From Bacteroidales bacterium (GTDB taxonomy: Bacteria > Bacteroidota > Bacteroidia > Bacteroidales > JAOZVK01): a stretch of DNA of 43,990 nt. The position numbers and the translations under genes are program-made. Below, piece by piece: positions 5,381 through 43,320 of the stretch (position 1 is the first letter of the stretch; every line of letters begins with the position of its first letter). Below the pieces are notes generated by a model. That model did not search any database. It was not told where the DNA came from and saw nothing but the letters and a program-made list of their open reading frames with translations. The stretch covers positions 1 through 43,990 of the forward strand of contig JAOZVK010000001.1 in assembly GCA_029938185.1 (NCBI GenBank), read 5' to 3'.

Positions 5381-5483
5381 TAAGTATTCTTACAAAAGTT
5401 TTTCGACATTTACCTATTCATAATTTACTGATTAATTTGCATTTGTACTAATGCGTAAGCAACTATAAATTAGGTCGAAGACC
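5381..5483 (-). repeat. GGTCTTCGACC-family dispersed element, full-length copy
   Basis: The reverse complement reads GGTCTTCGACCTAATTTATAGTTGCTTACGCATTAGTACAAATGC...GTCGAAAAACTTTTGTAAG. It is about 90 percent identical by eye to the copy at 37415-37522. Its first G completes the TAG stop of the gene ending at 5483. Confidence 0.8.
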
Positions 5484-6190
5484 TAAGGGATTGATTTAAG
5501 TTTTTCTATTTTAGATACTATTTGATTGGCAACAACCATAAAAGTAGTTTTAAAACTACTTTCAGTTTTGCTTATTTTAGACATTGAAGTATTTATATCG
5601 TTTTTAATATTCTGTATTTCTTGTTTACTTTCATTAATTTCGTGAGTAAGTTGTGCTATTTTATTAGCTTTATCTTTTATTTGTTTTTCAATATTTTCAA
5701 TTGATTTTTTCTTTTTATTTACTTGTCCGTCAGTTTGTTTTTTTAGAGCTTCATTAAACTTATCTTTTTCATTAGTAAGTATTTTTAAATAATAGTCCGC
5801 TGTTTCTATTACTTTTTCTTTTGTTAGACCTTTTGTTGATAAGGTTGCCAAAACTGTTTGCATTTTTATAGTTTCTTCCAATGGAATATTTTTCATAGCT
5901 TGGAGAGCTTCAATAAATTCCAAATAATCATCGCCAGGTAAATTTGCATCATAAATAGCTTTTGTCAGAGAATCAAATATTTTTTGATTAAACTCACCTT
6001 TGCTATTTTCTACTTTCGGCTTATTAATTTTTGTTGTTTTCTGCGAATATTGAGTTGTTGTTTTTTTAAGCTCAGGTTTTTTTGGTTCAACTTTGTCTTT
6101 TACTACTTCTTCATTTTTTTTAGTAATTTCTTCAACTTCCTCATCTGAAACGAAAAAGATACTTTTTAATTTATTTAAATCTATTGCCAT
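5483..6190 (-). CDS. hypothetical lysine/glutamate-rich coiled-coil protein
   Basis: Long ORF on the same strand as its neighbours. It has a coiled-coil C-terminus (KQIKDKANKIAQLTHEINESKQEIQNIKNDIN) and no catalytic motif. Confidence 0.55.
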   Translation of the reverse strand: MAIDLNKLKSIFFVSDEEVEEITKKNEEVVKDKVEPKKPELKKTTTQYSQKTTKINKPKVENSKGEFNQKIFDSLTKAIYDANLPGDDYLEFIEALQAMKNIPLEETIKMQTVLATLSTKGLTKEKVIETADYYLKILTNEKDKFNEALKKQTDGQVNKKKKSIENIEKQIKDKANKIAQLTHEINESKQEIQNIKNDINTSMSKISKTESSFKTTFMVVANQIVSKIEKLKSIP

Positions 6191-24353: not shown

Positions 24354-27300
24354 ATGACAAAAAAAGAAATAAAATCCCTTTGGAAAACGGAACATAAAGA
24401 ATATTCTAAACATGAAATAGGTTCGGGAGTTCAAAATTTTGTGAACGAAATATTAATGTCAAATGATTTTTTTAATCTAAAAAAAGGGAAATTATCAGAT
24501 AAGGAAAGTGAACGAAAAAATGAATTTTTGCTGGAAAAAACAAAAAAACAAAAAAGAGCTGATATAATTATTTATGTTGATAATGAAATTATTATTCCGG
24601 TTGAAGTTGAAAAATATAAAAATATAAATGCCGGTCGTCAACAAATTTTCAACTATCAAAAAGCATGGAATAAAAAATACGGAATACTTACAGATGGCTA
24701 CACATGGATTTTTTATAACAATAAAATAGAAATAAAAACATTTACTCTTGATTTTATCATTGAAAAAACTGAATTGTTTTTGCAATTTTGGGAAGAATAT
24801 ACTCAAACAGAAAATTATTACCTTCAATTTTTTGAACGAGTATTAGAAACCAAAGAACAAGAGCAGATTTTAGATATTGACCAAAACAGAAAAGATTTTT
24901 TTGATGATATTACAAAATTAATAGTAAGCTTTGCAAAAAAGTTAAACCTAAAAGGTTATTTTAACGAATTACCGGAAATAGAAAAAGAAAAAAAATCAAT
25001 CGAAATAACTTATGCTTATTTTATTCAATTTATACTTTATAAAACTCTCGCTGATAATGATTTTGATAACTTTGGCAATGATTTTAAAGAACGTTTAGAT
25101 AGAATTACAAATAATCTGAAAAATAAAACTTATGGAGATATACTTTCTGTAATAAAATCAATAAGCATAATAATTTCCAAAAATATTTATAAACCATTTG
25201 TCAAAGAACAAGAAATAATAAACAATACACTTGAAGAACTTTTAATAAAATCTCAAAATGACATAAAAGATATTTCTGTGTGGTTAGATATTTTTGTGTT
25301 CATAAAAAGATATAATTTTGCAAATGTCCAAAATGAAATTTTTGGATATATATATGAAAATTATTTAAAACAACTGTATGAAAATCAGAATAAAGGACAG
25401 TATTTTACTCCACCAGAAGTGGTCGATTTTATGTTGGAAGAAGTCGGTTATTCAAAAGAAAAACTTAAACATAAAAAAAATGATGAAATATCAATAATTG
25501 ACCCATCATGTGGCAGTGGAACATTTCTTTACAGTGCCGTAAGAAATGTTATAAATAGTAAAGAAAATAATAAAAATCTTGCAGATTTAATATCTGACAA
25601 TATTTTCGGACTTGATATAGAAGAGTTTCCGTTATACCTTGCAGAAATGAGTATAATAATGCGAATGTTACCACTGATAATTAACCAAAAATATAATAAT
25701 CCGATTGACAAAAAAATTAAAATATTTAAAACGAAAGACAGTATTTCTGAATTTCAAAATGTAGCACTCAAAAATACATTAACAGATATAAAACAAGAAT
25801 ACGAGAGGAATAAACAACAACTAAGTTTATTTACAAATGAATTAAATCTTGGTTATACAAGTTATATCAGAGACGAAGACGATTTACAAGGCATGAAAAA
25901 AAGTTTGGAAAATCAAGCAGTGCCGAAGATAGACAGAACACGTTTTGATTTTGTAGTAGGAAATCCGCCGTATATCGGTTATAATCAATGTGCAAGACAA
26001 GATATTCAATTTTTCGTTTGGTTACGTGAAAAAAAAGTAAAATTAAATAATGTTTACGGCGTAAATTTACACAGTGTTCCAAACCGTCCAAAGCGTTATC
26101 GTCCAAATCCAAATTTATATGCCTTTTTTACTGCACTCGGAATTGCTTTGCTAAAAGATAAAGGACAATTTGCTTATATTATTCCTCAAACAATACTTTT
26201 TGCCGGCGATTTAGATACCTTACGTTATCATCTTGCAAAATTTCTAACAATTCGTAAAATAATTATTTCTACAAGTAATATGTTTATTGACAGGGGAGTA
26301 AAACAAAATAAAGCTGTCGCAACTTCAAGTTTAATGCTGTTCGTAGAAAAAATACCACCTGCAAAATTACATGAAGTTGAAATAATTTATTACAAACCCA
26401 CTAACAATGACGTAAAAACAGTTATAGAAAATCTAAAAAATAATAAGCATACGGTTAAAAATAAGATACTTCAAAATAAACTTTTAAAAAATACAACAAA
26501 CTGGAATTTTATAATTCACCCGACAAATGAAATTGAATTTTTAATGAATTATAAAAGAAAATTTGAAGACCTATCTATTTATTACTTACATGAATTAGCG
26601 AAAATTCAATTTAATTCAATTTTTTATTTCGACAGCGGATACGGAATTGATGAACAACAAAAATTACAAAAAAAACCGAATACTGAATATTATTTTTTCC
26701 CAAAACTTCCAATAAAAAATTATACAATAACAGAAAATCGTGGTTTCTGGAAAAATGAACGAAAAAATAAAGAAGATATACAATTTATAAAACTACGACA
26801 AGCAAATCAAAAGTATAATTTATTAGACAGCACTTATAAAATACTTTGGTCATACAGCAATCCTAAACGATTTTATTTTACTGATAAAAAAGTAATTTGG
26901 CCTCGAAATCAAATAAATGCAATAGGTTCTGAAAACTTAAACGAGATTTACTTTTTATTTGCAATTTTAAATTCGCCCGTAACTGATTTTGTTTTAAAGC
27001 GACTACTAAAATCCGAGCATGAAAAGAATTTGCAAATTTCAACAAGCTCTGTAAAAGAATTTATAAAATTACCCAAAATAACTGATTTTAATAAGAACAT
27101 AAAAGAAAAAATAATCAAACTTACCGAAGAATTTATTAAAACAGAAAGTTTTAAACTTACTGATTTTATAAATTTAGATAATTTTCTCATACAAAAATTT
27201 GATAATGTATTTATAAGAGACAAAGAATTGATAATAACAAAGAATGAAAAAGAATATAATTTTTTAATGCAAGATAAATTTGATATAATTTCAAAACAAA

Positions 27301-27476
27301 TAGAAGAAATAAAAACACTTTCAGATTTAAAAAATTTACAAATAATTGATTATCTGCAACAAGCAAAAATTAAAGAAAATATTGATAATCTAATATTTGC
27401 ACTTTATTTTAATATAAAAGACGATGAAAATTTAATCGAAAATAAAAAGAAGCACAAACTTTACAAACTCCTTTAA
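24354..27476 (+). CDS. fused type IIG restriction endonuclease / N6-adenine DNA methyltransferase with C-terminal specificity region
   Basis: SAM motif I IIDPSCGSGTFL. Catalytic motif IV VVGNPPYIG. The N-terminal ~150 aa hold a candidate PD-(D/E)xK nuclease signature (RADIIIYVDNEIIIPVEVEKYK). The single polypeptide is 1040 aa. Confidence 0.8.
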   Translation: MTKKEIKSLWKTEHKEYSKHEIGSGVQNFVNEILMSNDFFNLKKGKLSDKESERKNEFLLEKTKKQKRADIIIYVDNEIIIPVEVEKYKNINAGRQQIFNYQKAWNKKYGILTDGYTWIFYNNKIEIKTFTLDFIIEKTELFLQFWEEYTQTENYYLQFFERVLETKEQEQILDIDQNRKDFFDDITKLIVSFAKKLNLKGYFNELPEIEKEKKSIEITYAYFIQFILYKTLADNDFDNFGNDFKERLDRITNNLKNKTYGDILSVIKSISIIISKNIYKPFVKEQEIINNTLEELLIKSQNDIKDISVWLDIFVFIKRYNFANVQNEIFGYIYENYLKQLYENQNKGQYFTPPEVVDFMLEEVGYSKEKLKHKKNDEISIIDPSCGSGTFLYSAVRNVINSKENNKNLADLISDNIFGLDIEEFPLYLAEMSIIMRMLPLIINQKYNNPIDKKIKIFKTKDSISEFQNVALKNTLTDIKQEYERNKQQLSLFTNELNLGYTSYIRDEDDLQGMKKSLENQAVPKIDRTRFDFVVGNPPYIGYNQCARQDIQFFVWLREKKVKLNNVYGVNLHSVPNRPKRYRPNPNLYAFFTALGIALLKDKGQFAYIIPQTILFAGDLDTLRYHLAKFLTIRKIIISTSNMFIDRGVKQNKAVATSSLMLFVEKIPPAKLHEVEIIYYKPTNNDVKTVIENLKNNKHTVKNKILQNKLLKNTTNWNFIIHPTNEIEFLMNYKRKFEDLSIYYLHELAKIQFNSIFYFDSGYGIDEQQKLQKKPNTEYYFFPKLPIKNYTITENRGFWKNERKNKEDIQFIKLRQANQKYNLLDSTYKILWSYSNPKRFYFTDKKVIWPRNQINAIGSENLNEIYFLFAILNSPVTDFVLKRLLKSEHEKNLQISTSSVKEFIKLPKITDFNKNIKEKIIKLTEEFIKTESFKLTDFINLDNFLIQKFDNVFIRDKELIITKNEKEYNFLMQDKFDIISKQIEEIKTLSDLKNLQIIDYLQQAKIKENIDNLIFALYFNIKDDENLIENKKKHKLYKLL

Positions 27477-31679: not shown

Positions 31680-33191
31680 ATGGAAAATCCTTTTGCAGAT
31701 TATGGTTCAATAGTTTTTGGTGACAGATTTATCGGAAGAAAAGAAGAGATAAAGGCTGTTCAAAACAGAATTTTCGGAAAAGCATATGGAAATCTTGCAA
31801 TACAGGGATTACCGAGAATTGGAAAATCAAGTCTTGCGTGGAAAGCAATTCTGGAATATAATGATGAATTTGAAAAAAAACAATTACTTACTATATTGGT
31901 AGAAGTTGGAGAAATAAAAACTACAACTGAATTTTTTAATACAATATTAAGAGAACTTAATAAGACGCTTTCAAAAAAAGGAATAAATGAGTTTAAAGAT
32001 TTGTATACTCAAATTTTACAAAGTCAAAGCCCTACCGAAAAAAGAATGTTAATCAAAGATTATTTTGAATTTATTAAAAATAAAGGCTTTCGAGTAATTT
32101 ATATATTAGATGAATTTGATAGTGTTAGAAATTATTTTGATGCCCACGATTTTCAACTATTAAGAGCATTATCATACAGTCCTAAAACAAAAATATGTAT
32201 TGTAACTATTTCACGACGAAGACTATCCGAAATTGAAGAAAAAGGTGGAGGTGGTTCTAATTTTTATCAAACTTTTAGTGATATTTATCTTGGTATGTAT
32301 AATGACAATGATTTGTCAGAATATTGGGAAAAGTTTTTTAACAGTCGTATTCATATTTCTAAAGAAGGGAAACAAAAGATTTATGAATTTGCAGGTCGGC
32401 ATCCATTTTTATTAGATTTATTCAATTATCATCTTTATAATAATTTAACAGACAACATAATACAATCAATTGACAAAACAAGAGAAAATATAAAATTAAC
32501 TATACTAAACAACTACAAAACTATTTTAGATTTACTGAAAGAAGAAAAATTAGATACAAAGTTATTTCAAATTATTGTTGGTCCAGTTTATAATATTACT
32601 GTCACAGATGCTGAAAAGTTGGAGCGATATAATTTGGTAGTTAAAAGCGAAAGTAAAACAATAGATATAGGAAACAGGACAAAAGGATATGATGCATTCT
32701 CACAGGATTTTGAAAATTTCCTAATAATGAAAAAAAGAGAAATGCCTATTTGGGATTTATGGAGTGAAACCGAAATAAAACTAAGACAAATTGTTTTAAA
32801 ATGGTTAGTTGAAAAATATGGCAGAAACTGGATTCCAAAGTTTAGAAAATTACAAAATAAGGAAAAGCTAATCGCATCGTTTGAAAATATGCAATTACGA
32901 GAAAAAAAGAGCTTTCCTGACACATATTCAGAAAATTTATTAGATTTTACATATCCGGCAGAACTTTTTGATAAGTTTATGCGAGTTGAATGGAAATGGT
33001 TTAAAGAAATATTTGGAAAAGATATGCAACATTGGAAACATAAATTTGAAGTTCTTGCAAGAATACGAAACCCATTAGCTCATAATAAAGAAAACATACT
33101 TAAAGACTTTGAGAAAAATCAAGCAAAAGCATATTGTGAAGAAGTGATTAGTAAGATAGATGCATGGCAAAAAAGACAAGAAATAATATAA
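31680..33191 (+). CDS. P-loop ATPase (archaeal-ATPase/ATPase_2-like) fused to a C-terminal Swt1-type HEPN domain
   Basis: FIGRKEEIKAV.. lead-in. Walker A GLPRIGKSSL. Walker B VIYILDEFDS. C-terminal module ETEIKLRQIVLKWLVEKYGRNW ... LARIRNPLAHNKE, with the Rx4H HEPN motif at 33066-33083. Confidence 0.75.
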   Translation: MENPFADYGSIVFGDRFIGRKEEIKAVQNRIFGKAYGNLAIQGLPRIGKSSLAWKAILEYNDEFEKKQLLTILVEVGEIKTTTEFFNTILRELNKTLSKKGINEFKDLYTQILQSQSPTEKRMLIKDYFEFIKNKGFRVIYILDEFDSVRNYFDAHDFQLLRALSYSPKTKICIVTISRRRLSEIEEKGGGGSNFYQTFSDIYLGMYNDNDLSEYWEKFFNSRIHISKEGKQKIYEFAGRHPFLLDLFNYHLYNNLTDNIIQSIDKTRENIKLTILNNYKTILDLLKEEKLDTKLFQIIVGPVYNITVTDAEKLERYNLVVKSESKTIDIGNRTKGYDAFSQDFENFLIMKKREMPIWDLWSETEIKLRQIVLKWLVEKYGRNWIPKFRKLQNKEKLIASFENMQLREKKSFPDTYSENLLDFTYPAELFDKFMRVEWKWFKEIFGKDMQHWKHKFEVLARIRNPLAHNKENILKDFEKNQAKAYCEEVISKIDAWQKRQEII

Positions 33192-34255: not shown

Positions 34256-34678
34256 TTGAAAAAAGAAATGAAAACATTAAAAGACATAGAAAAAAACCTT
34301 TCAGAAAAAGAAAAATATGAACTTACTGAAATAGTAAAACGAATAAAAGCAACTTGTCAGATACGAATGATAATACTTTTTGGTTCGCATGCAAGAGGCG
34401 AACAAGTTGATATTTCGCAATATTCCGAAGGCAAAAAAAGTGATTACGATATTCTGGTTGTTCCAATGTCTTGTACGAAAAAATTACTCAAAAAAGTAAA
34501 ACTATTGCTTAAAAATCTTTTTCATGATATTAACAAAACTGTCAGTTGTTTGGTTGTACCGATTGATAAACTAAACAGTTTATTACTTGAAGGTCAGTAT
34601 TTTTATACAGAAATAAAAAATGAAGGTATTTATCTGTATAAACTGGAAATATTGAATTGGAAAATAGTATTTATATAA
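34256..34678 (+). CDS. minimal nucleotidyltransferase (MNT/MntA-type antitoxin); start TTG 34256 or ATG 34268
   Basis: LFGSHARGEQ ... SDYDILVV (GSxxRG ... DxD pol-beta NTase motif). Confidence 0.75.
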   Translation: MKKEMKTLKDIEKNLSEKEKYELTEIVKRIKATCQIRMIILFGSHARGEQVDISQYSEGKKSDYDILVVPMSCTKKLLKKVKLLLKNLFHDINKTVSCLVVPIDKLNSLLLEGQYFYTEIKNEGIYLYKLEILNWKIVFI

Positions 34679-35121
34679 GTCCAAAACGAGAAAGAGAAAT
34701 TGCTGAAGAATATTATGAATTATGGTTTGGTCAGGCAAATGATTTTATGATGTGTCAGTTCGATGATATTAAAGCTAACAGGATTAGATTAGCAGCTTTT
34801 CATCTACAGCAATGTGCCGAAAGTTGTTATAAATGTGTAGAACTGGTGCTAACACGTTACTGTCCCAAAGAACATCTATTAACGGAGCTGAAAAAGAGAG
34901 TTATAAAACTAAATTCTGAATTTGAAATACCATTTCCAAGCGAAACTTCTGAACAAATTGTGTTGTTTAATCATTTGGATTTTGCCTATACTGGTGCAAG
35001 ATATAATAAAGATTATACAGTAACAATCAAACAATTAGACTATTGGCAAAAAGAAAATAAAAAACTTATGGATATTACTGAAAAAATCTGTACTATGCAT
35101 ATTGAAAAATTGGCTCTCTAA
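34657..35121 (+). CDS. HEPN-domain protein (HepT-type toxin partner of the MNT)
   Basis: Overlaps the NTase ORF by 22 nt. Helical protein with AAFHLQQCAESCYK and DFAYTGARYNKDY, typical of HEPN proteins paired with MNTs. Confidence 0.65.
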   Translation: MENSIYISPKREREIAEEYYELWFGQANDFMMCQFDDIKANRIRLAAFHLQQCAESCYKCVELVLTRYCPKEHLLTELKKRVIKLNSEFEIPFPSETSEQIVLFNHLDFAYTGARYNKDYTVTIKQLDYWQKENKKLMDITEKICTMHIEKLAL

Positions 35122-35224: not shown

Positions 35225-36661
35225 ATGAAAAAAGAAAATTTAAAAAATCAGGAAGAAGACAAAACTTTGCTTGAAGGAAGTGAAAATTTGACAGATAAAA
35301 ATAATAATGAAATTGTAGAGGAAGAAAAAAAAACTTTGAAAGACAAGATTATTAATCAAAAAACAGCCTTGCTTGTTGCCGGTGGCGGATTGATTGCAGG
35401 GACTGGATTTGCAGCAGGAACAAAGCAAAATGATGAAATACTTATTGATACCGACAATGACAACATTGCTGATGCTGTTTTGATAGACGAAAACGAAGAT
35501 GGTATTTATAACACTGAAACCGAAATTGAGGAGATAGAGGAAGTTGAGGAAGTTGAAACCGAACCCGAAATTGAAACAAACAGCGAAAACTCAAATAGTC
35601 ATACTTTTAATACAGATACAGCACCTCACACAAGTGAAGGAACGGTTACTGATGATATGTCGTTTTCGGAAGCATTTGGGGCGGCAAGAACTGAGCTTGG
35701 TGCCGGTGGTGTATTTGAGTGGGACGGTCAAGCTTACAGCACTTTTTATGCTGAAGAAGTTGACGAAAACATGAATCCAACAGTTGATTATACAACTACA
35801 AACGACCCTGAATATATTAATAATAACAATTCTGAAAATGATAATGAAAATACCGAAATAAATAACAATACAGATAATGACACAGATATAGATGATAACA
35901 CAGAATTAGAAGATGATACATTTGATGTTGAAAATATAGATGAAATAATTGACAACAGTGTTGTAGATACAGGAACGGTGGAATACGATGGTGAAGTGTC
36001 GAATGATATTCCTGATGATGTTTCTAATACCGAACTTGATAATCACAATAACGAATTTTCCAGTTCAAATGATAATTTTGACGATGAAGGTGGTGATGAC
36101 ATAAATCTAACATTTAACTTTACAAACAATACTGAAAATAACAATACTGAAAATAATAATATTGTAAATAACAATACTGAAAATAATAATATTGTAAATA
36201 ATAATATTGAAAATAATGATATTGAAAATAATGATGTTATAATTATTGATAATGAAAACACTGAAATAAATAATAATACTGTTGAAATTGAAAACACAGA
36301 AATAAACAACAATACTACTGAAAACTCAGATAATAATACAAGTAATGAAACAGATACAGACGATATTGTGGACTTAGATAATGATGTAGAGTTAGATGGT
36401 GATTTAGAAATAGGTGATGGTGCAGAATTAGATGATGATGTAGAGTTAGATGGTGATTTAGGATTAGATGATGATGTAGTTGAAGTTGAAGACATTGATG
36501 AAATAATCGGCAACGGTGTTGTAGATACAGGAACAGTGGAATATGACGGTGAAGTATCAAATGATGTTACTGATGATGTGCCAGATACCGAACTTGATAA
36601 TCACAACGACGACCTTGCAGCTTTAGATGATGATTTTGATGATATGAACGACTGGGCATAA
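35225..36661 (+). CDS. extremely acidic D/E/N-rich repeat protein with one predicted TM segment
   Basis: TM-like TALLVAGGGLIAGTGFAAGT. Conserved-looking block DDMSFSEAFGAARTELGAGGVFEWDGQAYSTFYAEE. A ~47-aa unit is duplicated (..IDEII.N.VVDTGTVEYDGEVSND..D.ELDNHN..) and there are N/E/I microsatellite-like tracts. Confidence 0.7.
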   Translation: MKKENLKNQEEDKTLLEGSENLTDKNNNEIVEEEKKTLKDKIINQKTALLVAGGGLIAGTGFAAGTKQNDEILIDTDNDNIADAVLIDENEDGIYNTETEIEEIEEVEEVETEPEIETNSENSNSHTFNTDTAPHTSEGTVTDDMSFSEAFGAARTELGAGGVFEWDGQAYSTFYAEEVDENMNPTVDYTTTNDPEYINNNNSENDNENTEINNNTDNDTDIDDNTELEDDTFDVENIDEIIDNSVVDTGTVEYDGEVSNDIPDDVSNTELDNHNNEFSSSNDNFDDEGGDDINLTFNFTNNTENNNTENNNIVNNNTENNNIVNNNIENNDIENNDVIIIDNENTEINNNTVEIENTEINNNTTENSDNNTSNETDTDDIVDLDNDVELDGDLEIGDGAELDDDVELDGDLGLDDDVVEVEDIDEIIGNGVVDTGTVEYDGEVSNDVTDDVPDTELDNHNDDLAALDDDFDDMNDWA

Positions 36662-36665
36662 ATTA

Positions 36666-36698
36666 AACTTTGACAAAGTTTAAAACTTTGTCAAAGTT
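36666..36698. repeat. REP-like 33-nt palindrome
   Basis: AACTTTGACAAAGTT-TAA-AACTTTGTCAAAGTT. Confidence 0.9.
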
Positions 36699-36856
36699 GG
36701 AGTTACATAGTTTAACAATGTAAATTTATAACCGTTTGCAATATAATATTACATTATAATGGTCTCATAAATTATTATAGCATTCATAAAGTCTCGGTGT
36801 AGTTAATAAAAAAACTATGCAGTTAAAAAAAGAGCCACACCAAGACATTTCTTACA

Positions 36857-36888
36857 AGTTTGACAAAGTTCAAAACTTTGTCAAACTT
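36857..36888. repeat. REP-like palindrome (slightly degenerate)
   Basis: AGTTTGACAAAGTT-CAAA-ACTTTGTCAAACT. It supplies the spurious TTG start at 36860. Confidence 0.85.
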
Positions 36889-36910
36889 AAATAAACAAAA
36901 TCAAAAAATT

Positions 36911-37414
36911 ATGAAAGTAAAATGTTCAAAATGTGGTAGTATTTTGTTAATTGCCGAAAACAAATTACCAAAAAATAAAAAAAAGGCAATGGTAAAATGT
37001 AAAAAATGTAACCATTCAATTGTATTTACAATTCCTAATGCCGGTGAGCCAGAAGGTGAAAAAACTGAAATTGGCGATGCTAATGAACTAAAAATTCAAA
37101 ATGTAAAACTTATTGAAACAAAAACCGGTAAAGAATATATCTTAAAAATTGGAAAAAATATTATTGGAAGAAAAACAGATATTTCTATTGAGGGAGATAA
37201 ATACATTAGCCGTTTACATTGCCTTGTGGAAATGAAAAAACAAACTTGGGGCATCGAACTCACAATAAGCGATGATGGAACAGAAACAGGAAAGCCGAGC
37301 ACAAATGGAACTTTTTATAAAGATGAAAAAATATCAAAATTTGATAAAATTGTGCTAAAAAATGGTGACAAAATACGTGTAGGACGCACCGATTTAACTG
37401 TAAAATTTTATTAA
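36911..37414 (+). CDS. MJ0042-type zinc-ribbon plus FHA domain protein
   Basis: MKVKCSKCGSILL..VKCKKCNHSIVF zinc ribbon. FHA signature IGRKTDISIEGDKYISRLHC...STNGTFYKDEKI...LKNGDKIRVG. Confidence 0.85.
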   Translation: MKVKCSKCGSILLIAENKLPKNKKKAMVKCKKCNHSIVFTIPNAGEPEGEKTEIGDANELKIQNVKLIETKTGKEYILKIGKNIIGRKTDISIEGDKYISRLHCLVEMKKQTWGIELTISDDGTETGKPSTNGTFYKDEKISKFDKIVLKNGDKIRVGRTDLTVKFY

Positions 37415-37522
37415 GGTCTTCTATCTATTTATAGTTGCTTACGCATTAGTACAAAGACAATTTAATCAGGAAATTATGAATAAGTAAATGTCGAAAAAAT
37501 TTTGTAACAGTACTTAATTGAA
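37415..37522 (+). repeat. GGTCTTCGACC-family element, full-length
   Basis: GGTCTTCTATCTATTTATAGTTGCTTACGCATTAGTACAAAGAC...GTCGAAAAAATTTTGTAACAGTACTTAATTG starts on the base after the TAA stop at 37412-37414. Confidence 0.8.
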
Positions 37523-37533
37523 CAATTAAAATC

Positions 37534-37683
37534 GGGGCTAACAATAGTATCATCTTTACGGATAGCCTACTGTCGGCGTGGCTCAAAGCCACACCGACAG
37601 TTTTAGGACAAGACAGTAAGAGAACAAACAGGTGAAAAACACCTGCCGAGCGCAATGAAGTATTCAACTTTATGTGGGTAGCC
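37534..37683 (-). repeat. composite GC-rich repeat with two hairpins, ending ..AACTTTATGTGGGTAGCC
   Basis: Hairpin CTGTCGGCGTGGC-TCAAA-GCCACACCGACAG (37570-37600). Hairpin CAGGTG-AAAAA-CACCTG. The tail GAGCGCAATGAAGTATTCAACTTTATGTGGGTAGCC recurs at 42148-42205 and 43875-43931. Confidence 0.75.
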
Positions 37684-37733
37684 AAACAGGCTATGCTATT
37701 ATTAACATTGTGAAAACTTTTAAATAATTTAAA

Positions 37734-38495
37734 ATGAATATGAGAAAAATCTTATTAATACTTTTTTTTACTATTTTTTTGCAACAAACTAATGCACAAA
37801 AAAAATATGTTTTAATAGCAGGAGTTGCAGATTATAAAGATGATAGGCTGGATTTGCACTATTGCGACGACGATGCATACCGTTTTTATGCATATATGAA
37901 AAGTACAAAAGGTGGAAGTGTGCAGGACAATAATATTGCTATACTGGTAGACGAGGCTGCAACACGTAAAAATATTTTAATGACTATGCATAAAATTTTT
38001 TCTAAAGCAGGAAAAAATGATATGCTTATTTTTTATTTTTCGGGACATGGCGGAAAAGGCTATTTTTGCCCATACGAAACAAGTAAAAACCCTAAAAGTT
38101 TGTTGTTACACAACGATATAAAAAAAATATTCAAAAAACATCCTGCAAAAAGCAAAATTGTATTTGGTGATGCATGCCATTCGGGTAGTATTTTTGAAGG
38201 TACAAGCCACACTGTACCAAATGGAACCGCTGTAAAAACAAATGTTGTAATATTAATGTCATCAAAATATAGCGAAACCTCACAAGAAAATAAAAAACTC
38301 AGACAAGGTACTTTTTCTTATTATCTTTTGCGTGGATTACAAGGTAAAGCAGATAGAAATAAAGATAAAAACATAACTTTACAAGAACTTTTTCCATATA
38401 TTAAAGCAAATGTTCTTAACTTTACAAAAAATAGGCAAACACCATTTATTGAAGGTAAAGCACCTGCAAATATGATAATTGGTAGATTAAAATAA
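37734..38495 (+). CDS. caspase-like (peptidase C14) protease with N-terminal signal peptide
   Basis: Signal peptide MNMRKILLILFFTIFLQQTNAQ. Catalytic His motif FYFSGHGG and Cys motif GDACHSG in the canonical order. Confidence 0.85.
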   Translation: MNMRKILLILFFTIFLQQTNAQKKYVLIAGVADYKDDRLDLHYCDDDAYRFYAYMKSTKGGSVQDNNIAILVDEAATRKNILMTMHKIFSKAGKNDMLIFYFSGHGGKGYFCPYETSKNPKSLLLHNDIKKIFKKHPAKSKIVFGDACHSGSIFEGTSHTVPNGTAVKTNVVILMSSKYSETSQENKKLRQGTFSYYLLRGLQGKADRNKDKNITLQELFPYIKANVLNFTKNRQTPFIEGKAPANMIIGRLK

Positions 38496-38526
38496 CTTTG
38501 ACAAAGTTCCAAACTTTGTCAAAGTT
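38494..38526. repeat. REP-like 33-nt palindrome overlapping the caspase stop codon
   Basis: AACTTTGACAAAGTT-CCA-AACTTTGTCAAAGTT. Its first two bases are the AA of the TAA at 38493-38495. Confidence 0.9.
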
Positions 38527-38565
38527 AAAAGTTAAAAAGTTGAAAAATCAATAAAAATAAAAATT

Positions 38566-38724
38566 ATGTTAGCACTAAAAGGAATATACGAAAATGGAAC
38601 AATAAAATTTGATAAACCAATAAATATAAAAAAAGCTGTAAAAGTTATTGTTATATTTATTGATGAAGAAATACAACTAAACTATCAAACAGTTGATACC
38701 AATAAAGAACATATTGCAAAATAA
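38566..38724 (+). CDS. small DUF104/AF2212-like antitoxin-type protein (52 aa), not in the supplied ORF track
   Basis: MLALKGIYENGTIKFDKPINIKKAVKVIVIFIDEE resembles the IYENGV.KP...L.EG..V.I pattern of small antitoxin-like proteins. No toxin partner is adjacent. Confidence 0.45.
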   Translation: MLALKGIYENGTIKFDKPINIKKAVKVIVIFIDEEIQLNYQTVDTNKEHIAK

Positions 38725-38845
38725 CCGGAAACATTTTTATACTCCGATTGAAACAAAAAAGTAACATTTAATACAATATACAATTTGTAAGTTTGTACAA
38801 GCTTTTCAGATAAAACAAAAGTCAAAAATATTTAATTTAATAATT

Positions 38846-40144
38846 ATGATTAACGATAAAGTGTTAAACTACAAAATTACTGTCTCGATAGGTAAAGGCG
38901 GTATGGCAGAGGTATTTAAAGCCGAACATCAAACTTTTGAGGATAGAAAAGTGGCAATAAAAATTCTCGACCCTGTGCTTGCTCGTAAAGAAAATATTGC
39001 GACACGATTTGTGAACGAAGCCAAAATTATGGCTAAATTGGAGCATCAGAATATTGTAAAAGTGGTTGATTTTGAGAAACGCACAGATATGCTCGCCATA
39101 ATAATGGAACTTCTCGAAGGAAAAAGCCTGACAGGATATATAAAACAAAAAGGAAAACTGCAAAAACAAGAAGCCATAGAAATTTTCAAACAAGCTTTGA
39201 GTGCTTTTGAATTTGCCCACAAACACAATGTAGTTCACCGTGATGTAAAACCCTCAAATATTTTTATAGAGACCCAAAAAGGCAATAATGTTAAAATACT
39301 TGATTTTGGTATAGCAAAACTATTAGAAAGCAATGCAAACGACACAAACACAGGTGCACAAATGGGAACACCTGTTTATATGAGTCCCGAACAAGTAAGA
39401 GACAGCAAAAATATTGACAGCCGAAGTGATATATACTCTTTGGGCGTAGTATTGTATTATATGCTTGCCGGAAAACCACCTTATGACAGTACAAGTCTCT
39501 CGAATTTTGATATTTACACAAAAATTGTAAATGAGCCGGTACCTGAACTGAGCACTCACCCCGAAATTAACAAAATAATAAAAAAAGCAACCGCCAAAAA
39601 ACCTGCTGATAGATACCAAACATGCAATGAGTTTGAAAAAGCACTCGAAGTAAACTTTGACAAAGTTCCAAACTTTGTCAAAGTTGAAACAAACAACGAA
39701 GATGAAACCCTAATAGACAACGAACAAAAAAACTTTGACAAAGTTCCAAACTTTGTCAAAGTTGAACCAAACGAAGATGTAACCCTAATAGACGACCCCG
39801 AAACTGAACTTTGGGACAAAATAAAAAACAAAACAGATATACAACTGTTTAAAAACTATTTGCAAAAATACCCAAATGGAAGATATAAAGAACAGGCAAG
39901 TAAAATAATTGATGCTAAAAACTTTGAAAAACAAAAAAACTTTGACAAAGTTCCAAACTTTGTCAAAGTTGAAACAAACAACGAAGATGAAACCTTAATT
40001 GACGACCCCGAAACCGAACTTTGGGACAAAATAAAAAACAAAACAGACATACAACTATTTAAAAACTACTTGCAAAAATACACAAATGGAAGATATAAAA
40101 AACTGGCAAGTAAAATAATTGATGCTAAAAACTTTGAAAAATAA
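38846..40144 (+). CDS. Hanks-type Ser/Thr protein kinase followed by 70-aa tandem repeats, terminated by a TAA inside a repeat
   Basis: GKGGMAEVF, VAIKIL, HRDVKPSNIF, DFGIAK and GTPVYMSPE. From 39653 the repeat units begin. The stop at 40142-40144 is CAA in the paralogous repeat copies. Confidence 0.9.
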   Translation: MINDKVLNYKITVSIGKGGMAEVFKAEHQTFEDRKVAIKILDPVLARKENIATRFVNEAKIMAKLEHQNIVKVVDFEKRTDMLAIIMELLEGKSLTGYIKQKGKLQKQEAIEIFKQALSAFEFAHKHNVVHRDVKPSNIFIETQKGNNVKILDFGIAKLLESNANDTNTGAQMGTPVYMSPEQVRDSKNIDSRSDIYSLGVVLYYMLAGKPPYDSTSLSNFDIYTKIVNEPVPELSTHPEINKIIKKATAKKPADRYQTCNEFEKALEVNFDKVPNFVKVETNNEDETLIDNEQKNFDKVPNFVKVEPNEDVTLIDDPETELWDKIKNKTDIQLFKNYLQKYPNGRYKEQASKIIDAKNFEKQKNFDKVPNFVKVETNNEDETLIDDPETELWDKIKNKTDIQLFKNYLQKYTNGRYKKLASKIIDAKNFEK

Positions 40145-40526
40145 AAAAACTTTGACAAAGTTCCAAACTTTGTCAAAGTTGAGACAAGCAACAATGATGA
40201 AACCTTAATTGATGACCCCGAAACCGAACTTTGGGAACAAATTAAAAATAAAAACGATATACAACTATTTAAAAACTATTTACAAAAATACCCAAATGGA
40301 AGATATAAAGAACAGGCAAGTAAAATAATTGATGCTAAAAACTTTGAAAAACAAAAAAACTTTGACAAAGTTCCAAACTTTGTCAAAGTTGAGACAAGCA
40401 ACAATGATGAAACCTTAATTGATGACCCCGAAACCGAACTTTGGGAACAAATTAAAAATAAAAACGATATACAACTATTTAAAAACTACTTGCAAAAATA
40501 CCCAAATGGTAGATATAAAAAACTGG
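39653..40526 (+). repeat. coding tandem repeat, 210-bp unit (one partial, three full, one partial), each unit starting with the REP-like palindrome
   Basis: Palindromes at 39653, 39731, 39938, 40148 and 40358. Spacing is exactly 210 bp for the last three. The unit encodes NFDKVPNFVKVE..ETLIDDPETELW..IKNK.DIQLFKNYLQKYPNGRYK..A.KIIDAKNFEKQK. Confidence 0.9.
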
Positions 40527-41308
40527 CAATAATTGAACAACCATCTGAGAATATAAAAAACTATACAGAAACTGTAAAAAGTGTAAGTTTTGATATGAAA
40601 GCTGTAGAAGGCGGAACATTCCAAATGGGAAGTAACGAAAACAGTGATGAAAAACCAATACACAGCGTAACAGTCCACAGTTATAATATGGGTAAATACG
40701 AAGTAACACAAAAACTATGGAAAGCAGTAATGGACAACAACCCAAGCCATTTTAAAGGAGACAATAGACCTGTTGAACAAGTTAGCTGGGATGATATACA
40801 AAAGTTTCTTAAAAAGCTAAACAAAATGACTAGTAAAAACTATCGCTTGCCCACAGAAACAGAATGGGAATATGCAGCCAGTGGAGGTAGCAAAATCCAA
40901 TCAACAATAGGTCGCATTTTGGAATGGAGGGAACATGTAGCTAGGGGTAGCACACACCAACAAAAATGGGCAGGTACAAATAGAAAAAGCTTGCTTGGCT
41001 CGTATGCTTGGTATAGCGACAACAGTGGCAGTAAAACACACAATGTAGGAACAAAACGTCCAAATAAACTTGGAATATACGATATGAGCGGAAACGTATG
41101 GGAATGGTGTCAAGACCATTGGCACAGTAATTACAACGGTGCACCAACAAATGGAAGAGCATGGACAAGTGGTAGTAGTTCGCGCCGTGTTATTCGTGGC
41201 GGCAGTTGGTATTACAACGCCAGTGGTTGTCGTGTGGCTTATCGGTACAGCTACAGTCAGGGCGAGCGTGCCTACAACTTGGGCTTTCGCCTTGTGTTTG
41301 TCCCGTAG
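40490..41308 (+). CDS. FGE-sulfatase (SUMF1/formylglycine-generating-enzyme-like) domain; same frame as the kinase ORF and open back to 40145
   Basis: GGTFQMGS..., YNMGKYEVTQKLW, RLPTETEWEYAASGG, GIYDMSGNVWEWCQD, RVIRGGSW and NLGFRLV. Confidence 0.85.
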   Translation: MQKYPNGRYKKLAIIEQPSENIKNYTETVKSVSFDMKAVEGGTFQMGSNENSDEKPIHSVTVHSYNMGKYEVTQKLWKAVMDNNPSHFKGDNRPVEQVSWDDIQKFLKKLNKMTSKNYRLPTETEWEYAASGGSKIQSTIGRILEWREHVARGSTHQQKWAGTNRKSLLGSYAWYSDNSGSKTHNVGTKRPNKLGIYDMSGNVWEWCQDHWHSNYNGAPTNGRAWTSGSSSRRVIRGGSWYYNASGCRVAYRYSYSQGERAYNLGFRLVFVP

Positions 41309-41334
41309 TTTAATGAATGCTTTTCTGGAAGCTC

Positions 41335-41352
41335 AACTTTGACAAAGTTCAA
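41335..41352. repeat. half REP-like palindrome (left arm only) just upstream of the RAYT-like gene
   Basis: AACTTTGACAAAGTTCAA with no matching right arm. Confidence 0.7.
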
Positions 41353-41386
41353 ACCTAAAATTTAAACCAACAAACTAAATTATAAG

Positions 41387-42004
41387 ATGAAATATTATAC
41401 AGAACAATTAGAACCCGATAAATATTATCACATTTATAATCATGCAGTAGGAAAACTGAATTTATTTATAAACAATGATAATTATGATTTTTTTCTTAAA
41501 AAATATTCACAACATATTTCACCTGTTGCCGATACTTTTGCTTATTGTTTAATGCCAAATCATTTTCATTTTGCTGTGCGTATAAAATCTGGTTCGAGTA
41601 TTTCAAGTTTGACAAAGTTTCAAAACTTTGTCAAAGTTCGCCATCGCAGTATAGAATTTTTTGTCAGTAAACAATTTTCTAATTTATTCAGCTCATATTC
41701 TCAGTCGTTCAACAAACAACAAAACCGAAGGGGTAGCCTGTTTGAGCGTCCTTTTAAAAGATTACATATAATTGACGATAAATATTTTCGTTCAATAATA
41801 CATTATATTCATTATAACCCTGTTCATCACGGTTTTGTTGATGATTTACGCAATTGGAAATATTCATCTTTCGAGAGTTTTTTTTCAGATAAAGCAACTC
41901 AACTAAAACGTGAAGAAGTAATAAATTGGTTCGATAATAAAGAAAATTTTTATGAATTTCATAAAAAAGAAATAGATGAAAAATTGATATTAGAGCTTGA
42001 ATAA
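41387..42004 (+). CDS. Y1 HUH transposase, IS200-like / REP-associated tyrosine transposase (RAYT) type, carrying an in-frame palindrome insertion
   Basis: YHIYNHAVGKLNLF, HUH motif MPNHFHFAV, GSLFERPFKR and catalytic-Tyr region HYIHYNPVHHGFV. Confidence 0.75.
   Translation: MKYYTEQLEPDKYYHIYNHAVGKLNLFINNDNYDFFLKKYSQHISPVADTFAYCLMPNHFHFAVRIKSGSSISSLTKFQNFVKVRHRSIEFFVSKQFSNLFSSYSQSFNKQQNRRGSLFERPFKRLHIIDDKYFRSIIHYIHYNPVHHGFVDDLRNWKYSSFESFFSDKATQLKREEVINWFDNKENFYEFHKKEIDEKLILELE
41606..41638. repeat. REP-like palindrome inside the RAYT-like coding sequence
   Basis: AGTTTGACAAAGTT-TCAAA-ACTTTGTCAAAGTT, translated as SLTKFQNFVKV between the HUH motif and the Tyr motif. Confidence 0.9.
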
Positions 42005-42038
42005 ATTTTTATTTAACTTAATAATCAACCTAATAATC

Positions 42039-42071
42039 AACTTTGACAAAGTTTAAAACTTTGTCAAAGTT
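42039..42071. repeat. REP-like 33-nt palindrome downstream of the RAYT-like gene
   Basis: AACTTTGACAAAGTT-TAA-AACTTTGTCAAAGTT. Confidence 0.9.
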
Positions 42072-42348: not shown

Positions 42349-43320
42349 ATGAATAACGAAATACTAATATACAAAACCGAAGACGGTAAAATAAAAATAG
42401 AAACTCATTTTGAAAATGAAACTGTTTGGCTAAATATAGAGCAAATAGCAGAGTTATTTCAAAAATCACGCTCTACTATAAATGAGCATATTCTTAATAT
42501 TTATAAAGAAGGTGAGCTTGAACAAGAAGAAACAAAGAGAAAAATCGGAATTTCCGATTTTTCTACTAAACCCACAAATTTCTATAATCTTGATGTTGTA
42601 ATTTCTGTAGGTTACCGAGTTAAATCGCAAATAGGTGTTCATTTTAGAAAATGGGCTACTAGCATAATCAAAGAATACATGATAAAAGGCTTTGCCATGA
42701 ATGACGAATTATTAAAACAAGCTGGCGGAGGCAATTATTTTGATGAACTATTGGCTCGTATTAGAGATATTCGTTCTTCTGAAAAAGTTTTTTGGCGTAA
42801 AGTCTTGGATATATATGCTACAAGCATAGATTATGACCCCAAATCAGAACATTCGATATTGTTCTTTAAAACAGTTCAAAACAAAATGCACTGGGCATCG
42901 CATGGCGAAACTGCTGCCGAAACCATATATCGTCGTGTTAATTCAGAAGAAAAAAATTTAGGATTGACAAATTTTAAAAAAGAAATTCCAACACAAAAAG
43001 AAACTGAAATAGCTAAGAATTACTTAGTAGAAAATGAATTGAATATGCTTAACCGAATGGTAACGGCCTATCTTGAAGTTGCAGAAATTCAAGCACTAAA
43101 TCAAATACCAATGTACATGGGTGATTGGATTAAACAATTGGACTCTTTTCTAACAATGACAGGAAAAGAGGTACTGCAACATTCCGGTACAGTAAGTCAT
43201 AAACAAGCAATTGAAAAAGCTCATACAGAATATAATAGGTACAAGGAGAAGGTAAAAAACAGAATATCTCAAGTTGAAAAGGATTTTATGAAACAAATTG
43301 AAAACAAAACGAAAAGATAA
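42349..43320 (+). CDS. RhuM-family (virulence protein RhuM-like) protein
   Basis: ETVWLNIEQIAELFQKSRSTINEHILNIY, YNLDVVISVGYRVKS and FRKWATSIIKEYMIKGF, typical of the RhuM family. Confidence 0.75.
   Translation: MNNEILIYKTEDGKIKIETHFENETVWLNIEQIAELFQKSRSTINEHILNIYKEGELEQEETKRKIGISDFSTKPTNFYNLDVVISVGYRVKSQIGVHFRKWATSIIKEYMIKGFAMNDELLKQAGGGNYFDELLARIRDIRSSEKVFWRKVLDIYATSIDYDPKSEHSILFFKTVQNKMHWASHGETAAETIYRRVNSEEKNLGLTNFKKEIPTQKETEIAKNYLVENELNMLNRMVTAYLEVAEIQALNQIPMYMGDWIKQLDSFLTMTGKEVLQHSGTVSHKQAIEKAHTEYNRYKEKVKNRISQVEKDFMKQIENKTKR

Follow-up and report, generated by a model that had tools for sequence, protein, structure and literature searches.

Operons that join a Ser/Thr kinase to a PP2C phosphatase and FHA proteins are well studied in Actinobacteria and in the control of the Pseudomonas type VI secretion system (T6SS), but those of Bacteroidota are almost wholly uncharacterised. 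Here we analyzed an entire contig of 43,990 bp from a Bacteroidia metagenome-assembled genome (MAG; ~28% GC), referred to below as the window. Judging from gene content and from conservation in related genomes, its region at 35.2-41.3 kb probably represents one arm of a conserved, envelope-associated Ser/Thr phospho-signalling operon of Bacteroidota, of which this copy appears to be rearranged, with the kinase gene disrupted.

The mycobacterial and actinobacterial operon fhaA-fhaB-pstP-...-pknA-pknB likewise encodes a Hanks kinase of the receptor type, whose sensor is extracytoplasmic, together with a PP2C phosphatase and two FHA proteins, one of which is membrane-anchored; its FHA proteins are recruited by phosphothreonine (pThr) sites, as is proposed below for the present operon. 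However, it belongs to another phylum, and its PASTA sensor, rodA and pbpA are not found in the Bacteroidota operon, which adds an exported caspase and an acidic membrane protein and whose FHA proteins carry zinc ribbons. The zinc-ribbon-FHA (ZnR-FHA) protein of the window gave a weak match to the NCBIfam FhaB/FipA Rv0019c model (5.9e-8, far below the cutoff). In Pseudomonas, the kinase PpkA is fed by the accessory periplasmic proteins TagQRST. The PpkA/PppA/Fha1 system of the Pseudomonas aeruginosa T6SS, a kinase/FHA system like PknB/Rv0019c, resembles the present operon in that a membrane kinase, part of which is periplasmic, is combined with a PP2C phosphatase and an FHA scaffold phosphorylated on Thr (PMC6213207). 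The present operon differs in that no T6SS genes lie nearby in any of its loci, in that its accessory periplasmic protein is a C14 protease, and in the sensor domains.

Operon composition and distribution

A caspase profile was scanned against one genome per GTDB species, which returned 80 loci (related loci carry L numbers below), and the other proteins of the window were then sought within these loci. Protein families were called with Pfam, NCBIfam and PADLOC. The module genes of the window, together with a small open reading frame (ORF) lying among them, are the following (aa, amino acids; basis in brackets):

35225-36661, + strand: acidic single-pass membrane protein, 478 aa (homologue adjacency, alignment)
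36911-37414, + strand: protein with a zinc ribbon (MJ0042-type, CxxC...CxxC), a linker and an FHA domain, 167 aa (Pfam, NCBIfam, alignment)
37734-38495, + strand: C14 (metacaspase/orthocaspase-like) protease, 251-253 aa, with a signal peptide and His103/Cys146 (Pfam, alignment)
38566-38724, + strand: 52-aa ORF, weakly AF2212/DUF104-like (PF01954, below cutoff)
38846-40144, + strand: Hanks Ser/Thr kinase domain (residues 1-270) and repeat linker (Pfam, translation)
40145-41308, + strand: continuation of the kinase frame, with two further repeat units and an FGE-sulfatase/C-type-lectin fold (Pfam)

The gene order is thus acidic protein, ZnR-FHA, caspase and kinase-FGE, followed by a transposase gene and a RhuM gene that are described below; the order acidic, ZnR-FHA, caspase, kinase is common to the window, L002 and L003.

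In related genomes these genes form part of a larger set. The full operon comprises six genes, encoding a protein with an FHA domain, a transmembrane (TM) segment and a zinc ribbon (FHA-TM-ZnR, ~210 aa), the acidic membrane protein, ZnR-FHA, PP2C, the exported caspase and a receptor-type kinase. Co-conservation was counted in the 22 loci that combine a caspase of at least 48% identity with a flank of at least 5 kb. FHA-TM-ZnR was found in 21 and PP2C in 20 of these, the acidic protein in 18, and ZnR-FHA and the kinase in 16 each. None of the companions was present at ~50 loci with caspases of 38-45% identity (Saprospiraceae and others). Four long contigs labelled with Pfam (L086, L088, L089 and L187) share the order caspase, PP2C, FHA, acidic, ZnR-FHA, kinase, and L185 carries the complete operon in a variant order. 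All six genes are also present in the cultured strains Spirosoma spitsbergense DSM 19989 and Larkinella rosea (L072) and in a Bernardetiaceae MAG, with an expanded form in Flammeovirga agarivorans and a reduced set (acidic, FHA and PP2C) in a Bacteroidaceae MAG. In the last two genomes an AhpC/TSA-redoxin (thioredoxin-like) gene adjoins the acidic/FHA/PP2C genes (Flammeovirga agarivorans, L189, 8933-10030; Bacteroidaceae MAG, L188, 11012-11518).

In all long contigs examined, the operon has housekeeping genes on either side and no defence or mobile neighbours. Depending on the locus these are purL and ccm genes; TonB receptors and a PNP/CSD pair; the nuo operon, cstA and sua5 (L185); mnmA, coaX and lptC; dapF, htrA, rpoD, gap and topA; or peptidase U32, prmC and moaC (L003). 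The operon does not occupy one fixed chromosomal site, since the upstream PNP_UDP_1-CSD synteny of L086 and L088 is missing from the other loci.

An earlier annotation of the same DNA, made from its letters without database searches (the sequence-only reading), had described four same-strand genes lying together next to a hyper-acidic membrane protein, as a candidate module. That the genes function together is strongly supported by their co-conservation across Bacteroidales and Cytophagales. They do not form a stand-alone four-gene module, however, being part of the six-gene operon with PP2C and a second FHA gene, and the acidic protein is a conserved member of the operon and not a mere neighbour. 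The pairing of kinase and FHA protein as writer and reader, also proposed in that reading, is strongly supported by co-conservation and by intact residues in both proteins, which are described below.

The ZnR-FHA protein was identified by its FHA domain (Pfam, 4.4e-12, within the ORF at 36860-37414) and its zinc ribbon (Pfam Zn_ribbon_4, 5.7e-7; NCBIfam TIGR02098, MJ0042_CXXC, above the cutoff), in agreement with the sequence-only reading in all but the start codon: the true start is the ATG at 36911, and the listed TTG at 36860 sits within a palindrome. In an alignment reaching from Bacteroidales to Cytophagales, the four Cys of the ribbon and K51-T52 of the linker are invariant, as are the pThr-binding residues G86-R87, S130 and N132-G133-T134 of the FHA domain, where the window protein has the motif SRLH.

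The C14 protease was called equally clearly (Pfam Peptidase_C14, 5.1e-20), and the dyad already noted as intact, His103 of SGHG and Cys146 of DACHSG, is invariant in 25 homologues. Its closest solved relatives are metacaspases (E=2e-9), while the NCBIfam caspase_w_EACC1 model scored 83.5, below its cutoff of 140. The deposited protein begins at the third codon of the 253-aa ORF, and an exact look-up with this start returned only two short contigs of the same strain. The signal peptide described in the sequence-only reading corresponds to an N-terminal hydrophobic leader kept across the family. Because this signal peptide is present in all orthologues, the caspase is predicted to be exported in all of them and, as an exported protein, cannot act on cytoplasmic targets.

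The spacer between the FHA and caspase genes holds a ~104-bp sequence (37414-37516) that is 89% identical to an intergenic sequence 32 kb away on the opposite strand (5381-5484), as well as a 15-bp GC-rich hairpin at 37569-37601 without an Rfam match. Rfam gave no match in the whole window, nor in the spacer at 37.4-37.7 kb when permissive settings were used.

The acidic membrane protein consists of an N-terminal tail with the sequence EDKTLLE, a hydrophobic segment, a conserved core with the invariant pattern F-x-EAF-xx-AR-x-E-x-G-x-GG-x-F-x-W-x-G-xx-Y-x-T, acidic repeats resembling DxDxDG, and a conserved C-terminus (DDFDDMNDWA). It could be assigned to no family of Pfam, NCBIfam or PADLOC, and ten diverse relatives were likewise without a Pfam domain. 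The family is large, with at least 1203 clusters at 50% identity, and its members adjoin ZnR-FHA in L002-L015, L017, L072, L076, L086-89, L185 and L187-189. The core of ~55 aa (about 35640-35790) was modelled by AlphaFold2 as a helix and a hairpin with predicted local distance difference test (pLDDT) values of 86-94, for which Foldseek found no PDB match at E<=0.001. Arg155, within this core, is the only Lys or Arg in residues 68-478 of the window protein. In L008, L086 and L088, this region likewise has no, or hardly any, basic residue besides the equivalent Arg.

The small ORF between the caspase and kinase genes, described earlier as a tiny DUF104-like protein, is present, but its match to PF01954 (E=0.012, 16.4 bits) does not reach the cutoff of 21.6 bits. 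It has no counterpart between caspase and kinase in L002 and L003, and a palindrome at 38497-38523 precedes it. The ORF is a lineage-specific insert outside the conserved module.

The kinase gene, its palindromes and its sensor domain

The kinase domain gave a strong Pfam match (Pkinase, 4.7e-58), and VAIK, HRDVKPSN, DFG and SPE are all present in its translation. As the sequence-only reading had stated, it is joined through 70-aa repeats to an FGE-sulfatase domain and the frame contains a premature stop. Both halves lie in one frame, of which the sole interruption is the TAA at 40142-40144. Pfam placed the FGE-sulfatase domain (9.1e-52) at about 40595-41296 of the ORF 40490-41308, and the repeats were delimited by Tandem Repeats Finder (TRF). 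The repeats and the mobile elements associated with them are:

39723-40529, + strand: tandem array, 3.9 x 210 bp (70 aa; TRF score 1330, 93% matches)
36669-42068, strand not assigned: repetitive extragenic palindrome (REP)-type palindromes, ten full copies and a half copy (pattern searches)
41387-42004, + strand: REP-associated tyrosine transposase, RAYT (NCBIfam REP_Tyr_transpos, 2.5e-17, 63 bits, below the cutoff of 80)

The palindrome, TTGACAAAGTT(n)AACTTTGTCAA, occurs ten times, with no occurrence expected in shuffled sequences, which agrees with the earlier description of the cluster as saturated with mobile palindromes. The full copies are at 36669, 36859, 38497, 39656, 39734, 39941, 40151, 40361, 41609 and 42042, and the half copy is at 41338; all ten lie within 36.6-42.1 kb and none was found elsewhere in the 44-kb window. 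In a scan for sigma-70 promoters and terminators, the only "terminators" reported were these palindromes. Five copies stand in frame within the kinase frame (39656-40387), each encoding NFDKVPNFVKVE, and the RAYT gene itself holds an in-frame copy (41609-41634). Clustered palindromes adjoining an IS200-like Y1 transposase of the RAYT type are the hallmark of REP/RAYT systems, and this copy of the operon is invaded by REP palindromes from the adjacent RAYT.

Each 210-bp unit of the array is headed by one REP copy, followed by a Thr motif, N-[NE]-D-E-T-L-I-D, and a hairpin-like motif, W..I....D...F..YL..YP.G.Y. Column identity in an alignment of the four units is 91%. The W/YP motif is single-copy in L002, L003 and L010, and the kinase of L006 (80% identical) has a related palindrome-encoded sequence, NFAKVQNFGKVE, at the same linker position. 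As all three elements recur in every unit, and relatives have a single W/YP motif, a REP appears to have seeded a duplication that multiplied a putative phospho-acceptor site. In-frame palindrome insertions are known, for example, from the Rickettsia palindromic elements. The present case resembles such insertions and REP/RAYT systems in that palindromes cluster at the RAYT gene and in-frame copies occur in coding genes; it is unlike them in that the palindrome within the ORF heads a 210-bp tandem duplication of a putative phospho-acceptor motif.

The TAA results from a single C to T change (CAA to TAA) in the first codon of repeat unit 3. Two independent assemblies of the same strain (L081 and L082) are 100% identical to the window and end at 39758, in the second REP of the array. 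As both of these assemblies terminate within the array, the copy number and the TAA are provisional; the kinase-FGE gene of the window is either a pseudogene or a split gene, or its array is misassembled.

Among the orthologues, most kinases consist of a catalytic domain, a short linker with the Thr motif, one TM helix and a variable C-terminal domain; those of L002, L003, L006, L069 and L072 have no TM segment or several. Pfam identified the variable domain as FGE, WG_beta_rep, YceI, TPR or TPR with FKBP_C. The FGE sensor is found in the window, L003, L004, L006 and L017, and most module kinases have non-FGE sensors.

The best PDB match of the FGE domain is Treponema denticola TvpA (E=1.7e-45), a variable protein of a diversity-generating retroelement (DGR). 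In an alignment with the formylglycine-generating enzyme of S. coelicolor, LCHDSYC corresponds to YYNASGC in the window, i.e., the first catalytic Cys is replaced by Tyr, and among the orthologues the catalytic Cys pair (C-x4-C) is present only in L003. Since the domain is TvpA-like and lacks the first catalytic Cys, it is a binding module and not a formylglycine-generating enzyme; with one catalytic Cys missing, a catalytic identity was rejected.

Proposed signalling scheme and alternative explanations

The Thr motif (DDKT-L-I-D) recurs in three proteins of the module: in the kinase linker, with variants such as DDDKTLIDIP, ADDKTIID and NDETVIDE, in the N-terminal tail of the acidic protein (EDKTLLE), and in the ZnR-FHA linker (K51-T52). 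We propose that a ligand bound by the sensor domain would control the activity of the kinase, which may phosphorylate the threonines of these motifs at all three places, its own linker included. Both FHA proteins could then dock on the pThr sites. The mycobacterial FHA protein GarA binds its own phosphorylated segment, and ZnR-FHA may possibly act likewise on its own linker. PP2C would reset the system. The periplasmic caspase would act on an extracytoplasmic partner, as an input or an output step. Metacaspases and orthocaspases are Arg/Lys-specific, and if the enzyme shares this specificity, a candidate substrate is the ectodomain of the acidic protein, nearly free of Lys and Arg and with one invariant Arg.

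Several observations weigh against this interpretation of the locus. The receptor topology, with a TM helix between kinase and sensor, is not found in the window: the 820-aa read-through kinase-FGE product has no TM segment (no 19-mer reached the hydrophobicity threshold of 1.6), nor has the kinase of L006. The L003 kinase has two hydrophobic segments, and those of L004 and L017 have one each. Because the window and L006 kinases are TM-less and that of L003 has two segments, the sensor may be cytoplasmic in this sub-lineage, apart from the exported caspase. A tblastn search found no PP2C gene in the 44-kb window, and the second FHA gene is not in the window either. Matches to a regular expression for the Thr motif were 4.6-fold more frequent among module proteins than among the remaining ORFs of these loci, a frequency that is inflated by acidic composition and was obtained with a pattern defined post hoc. 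The role given to the caspase is purely inferred, and in L083, the nearest relative on a long contig (80% caspase identity), the caspase gene stands without its companions, beside a PDDEXK_9 gene. Finally, the operon is widespread in Bacteroidota but its distribution there is patchy, and no description of it was found in the literature searched.

The missing genes may be explained by the end of the contig, which stops 670 bp after the RhuM gene. In L003 the order is the same and continues from kinase-FGE through a RhuM-N/Fic fusion, PP2C and FHA-TM-ZnR; PP2C and FHA-TM-ZnR of the window may therefore lie just past the contig end, or be lost. The gene that occupies the position of the RhuM-N/Fic fusion, between kinase-FGE and PP2C, is:

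42349-43320, + strand: RhuM-family protein (Pfam Virulence_RhuM, 2.1e-101; PADLOC PDC-S05)

Four genomes have a RhuM-family gene within the operon or bordering it, namely those of the window (42349-43320), L003 (11348-12331), L008 (8897-9928) and L009 (5224-6195). This recurrence could reflect an insertion hotspot or a functional association.

Of the alternative explanations, the least improbable is that the window cluster is a decaying remnant, in which REP/RAYT activity duplicated the linker, the TM segment was lost, a nonsense mutation split the kinase gene and PP2C and the second FHA gene disappeared, so that it no longer signals. We regard this as possible but rather doubtful. The in-frame TAA created by one C to T change, the five REP copies inside the kinase ORF with another in the RAYT gene, the absence of PP2C from the contig, and the insertion of an extra 52-aa ORF and a 320-bp spacer all fit decay, as does the lack of a TM segment, whereas L004, L017 and most other relatives have one. 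However, ZnR-FHA, the caspase and the acidic protein are full length and keep all invariant residues, and the kinase domain is intact. The repeats preserve the reading frame, as if a read-through product were under selection, and the L006 kinase is TM-less too, yet uninterrupted. The contig end coincides with the point at which L003 continues into PP2C and FHA. Moreover, the array exceeds the length of short reads and two assemblies break there, and the stop and the copy number may hence be artefacts.

The sequence-only reading had proposed a phospho-signalling or cell-death conflict module. In an anti-phage or programmed-cell-death module, the FGE domain would sense an invader, the kinase and FHA protein would relay the signal, and the caspase would execute cell death or abortive infection. 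Caspase and FGS/FGE domains are indeed found repeatedly among predicted conflict systems (Kaur et al. 2020, PMC7159879; PMC10907252). Those systems are defined by NTPase cores, namely MoxR-vWA, iSTAND and GAP1, with effector-associated domain (EAD) adaptors (PMC7159879). The present genes resemble the NTP-dependent conflict systems (VMAP/MoxR-vWA, iSTAND, GAP1) in their caspase-like peptidases, FGE/FGS C-type-lectin domains, kinases and, occasionally, FHA domains. In those systems, however, the FGS domain is a C-terminal effector or sensor on a vWA or STAND protein, and such cores and adaptors are absent here: Pfam, PADLOC and NCBIfam detected no NTPase, vWA or EAD core in 35.2-43.3 kb. Membership in VMAP, iSTAND or GAP1 was rejected for want of an NTPase core. 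An AAA-like ORF (31680-33191) is present upstream, but ABC-2 and MNT/HEPN genes stand between it and the cluster, and related operons lack it.

The TvpA-like FGE domain and the swapping of the sensor domain between lineages would also suit an invader sensor, and in the window the neighbours include MNT/HEPN genes, a type IIG restriction-modification (RM) gene, RhuM (PDC-S05) and RAYT. However, the homologous operons lie among housekeeping genes in all long contigs examined, without defence or mobile neighbours. Of the two refuting conditions named in the sequence-only reading, a consistent housekeeping context is thus observed, while a lack of co-conservation is clearly not. The conflict and cell-death interpretation is regarded as improbable. 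In addition, all caspase orthologues carry a signal peptide, most module kinases have non-FGE sensors, and the caspase_w_EACC1 match is below the cutoff.

The PADLOC search that the sequence-only reading had recommended did return matches, of the kinase to PD-T4-6 and mad6 and of the caspase to a caspase model, but the kinase matches are generic. On the PD-T4-6 models, the kinase domain of Mycobacterium tuberculosis PknB scored 594 bits, compared with 278 for the window kinase, and the kinase of L086, which lies in a housekeeping context, scored like the window kinase on the same models. As the models do not discriminate, membership in PD-T4-6 was not adopted. It should be noted that, since they score the essential PknB so highly, the PD-T4-6 models by themselves would flag any Hanks kinase as a defence system; likewise, a content of caspase, FGE and kinase domains is insufficient for calling defence.

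Another explanation is that the kinase-FGE gene is a remote DGR target, whose FGE/C-type-lectin (CLec) end is hypermutated to retune ligand recognition, as in cyanobacterial Ser/Thr kinase (STK)-CLec proteins. DGRs often act on STK-CLec and orthocaspase-CLec proteins (Vallota-Eastman et al. 2020, PMC7517822). The former share with the window protein an N-terminal Hanks kinase fused to a C-terminal FGE/CLec domain, and its closest solved relative, TvpA, is a DGR variable protein. The 3' end of the FGE sequence (41150-41305, last ~50 codons) is A-poor (0.10-0.22) and has a GC content of 0.53 with 80% NNY codons (N, any base; Y, pyrimidine), a composition resembling a DGR variable region in a ~28% GC genome. 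The same A-poor, NNY-rich end is found in L003 (10859-11058) and L004 (7310-7509), whose genomes have 25-28% GC. This composition could, however, reflect a conserved fold end rich in Gly, Arg, Trp, Tyr and Ser. No template repeat of 40900-41340 was detected in the window, L003, L004, L006 or L017, and no reverse transcriptase among the window ORFs, in related loci or near the closest multi-contig FGE homologue. Near-identical FGE alleles were not found either, the next homologue being 62% identical, and the caspase is separate and exported here, unlike in the fused orthocaspase-CLec proteins. Hypermutation of this gene is accordingly quite improbable.

Equally slight are the chances of trans-envelope surveillance, in which a swappable sensor, TvpA-like and possibly retroelement-diversified in this lineage, would recognize foreign surface or periplasmic ligands, and pThr/FHA signalling would license the periplasmic caspase to cleave the single-Arg acidic protein, remodelling or destroying the envelope; if true, the operon would encode an immunity pathway run by a receptor kinase, in which the caspase acts as executioner outside the cytoplasm.

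Neighbouring genes and significance

Upstream of the operon, the window contains a type IIG (Eco57I/MmeI-like) RM gene (24354-27476), the gene of an AAA/STAND-like ATPase (31680-33191) and an MNT/HEPN pair (34256-35121). These are interleaved with genes of TPR proteins and an ABC-2 permease, and they are not conserved beside the operon in other genomes. An IS110-family transposase is encoded near the start of the window by two overlapping ORFs (DEDD_Tnp_IS110, 632-952; Transposase_20, 949-1986), which suggests a frameshift. The sequence-only reading had placed the cluster in an accessory arm. RM, HEPN and transposase genes are indeed nearby, but this chromosomal stretch also carries ftsK, lolA, miaA, infB, nusA and rimP.

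The interest of these results lies less in the window locus than in the operon family that it revealed. What appears to be new is a kinase/PP2C/FHA operon that also encodes an exported caspase and an acidic membrane protein lacking annotation. Through a candidate phospho-acceptor motif, the operon would link an exported caspase-like protease and a large unannotated acidic protein family to a receptor kinase. Its presence in the cultured bacteria S. spitsbergense DSM 19989, L. rosea and F. agarivorans makes the proposed roles of the periplasmic caspase and of the DDKT-L-I-D motif testable.

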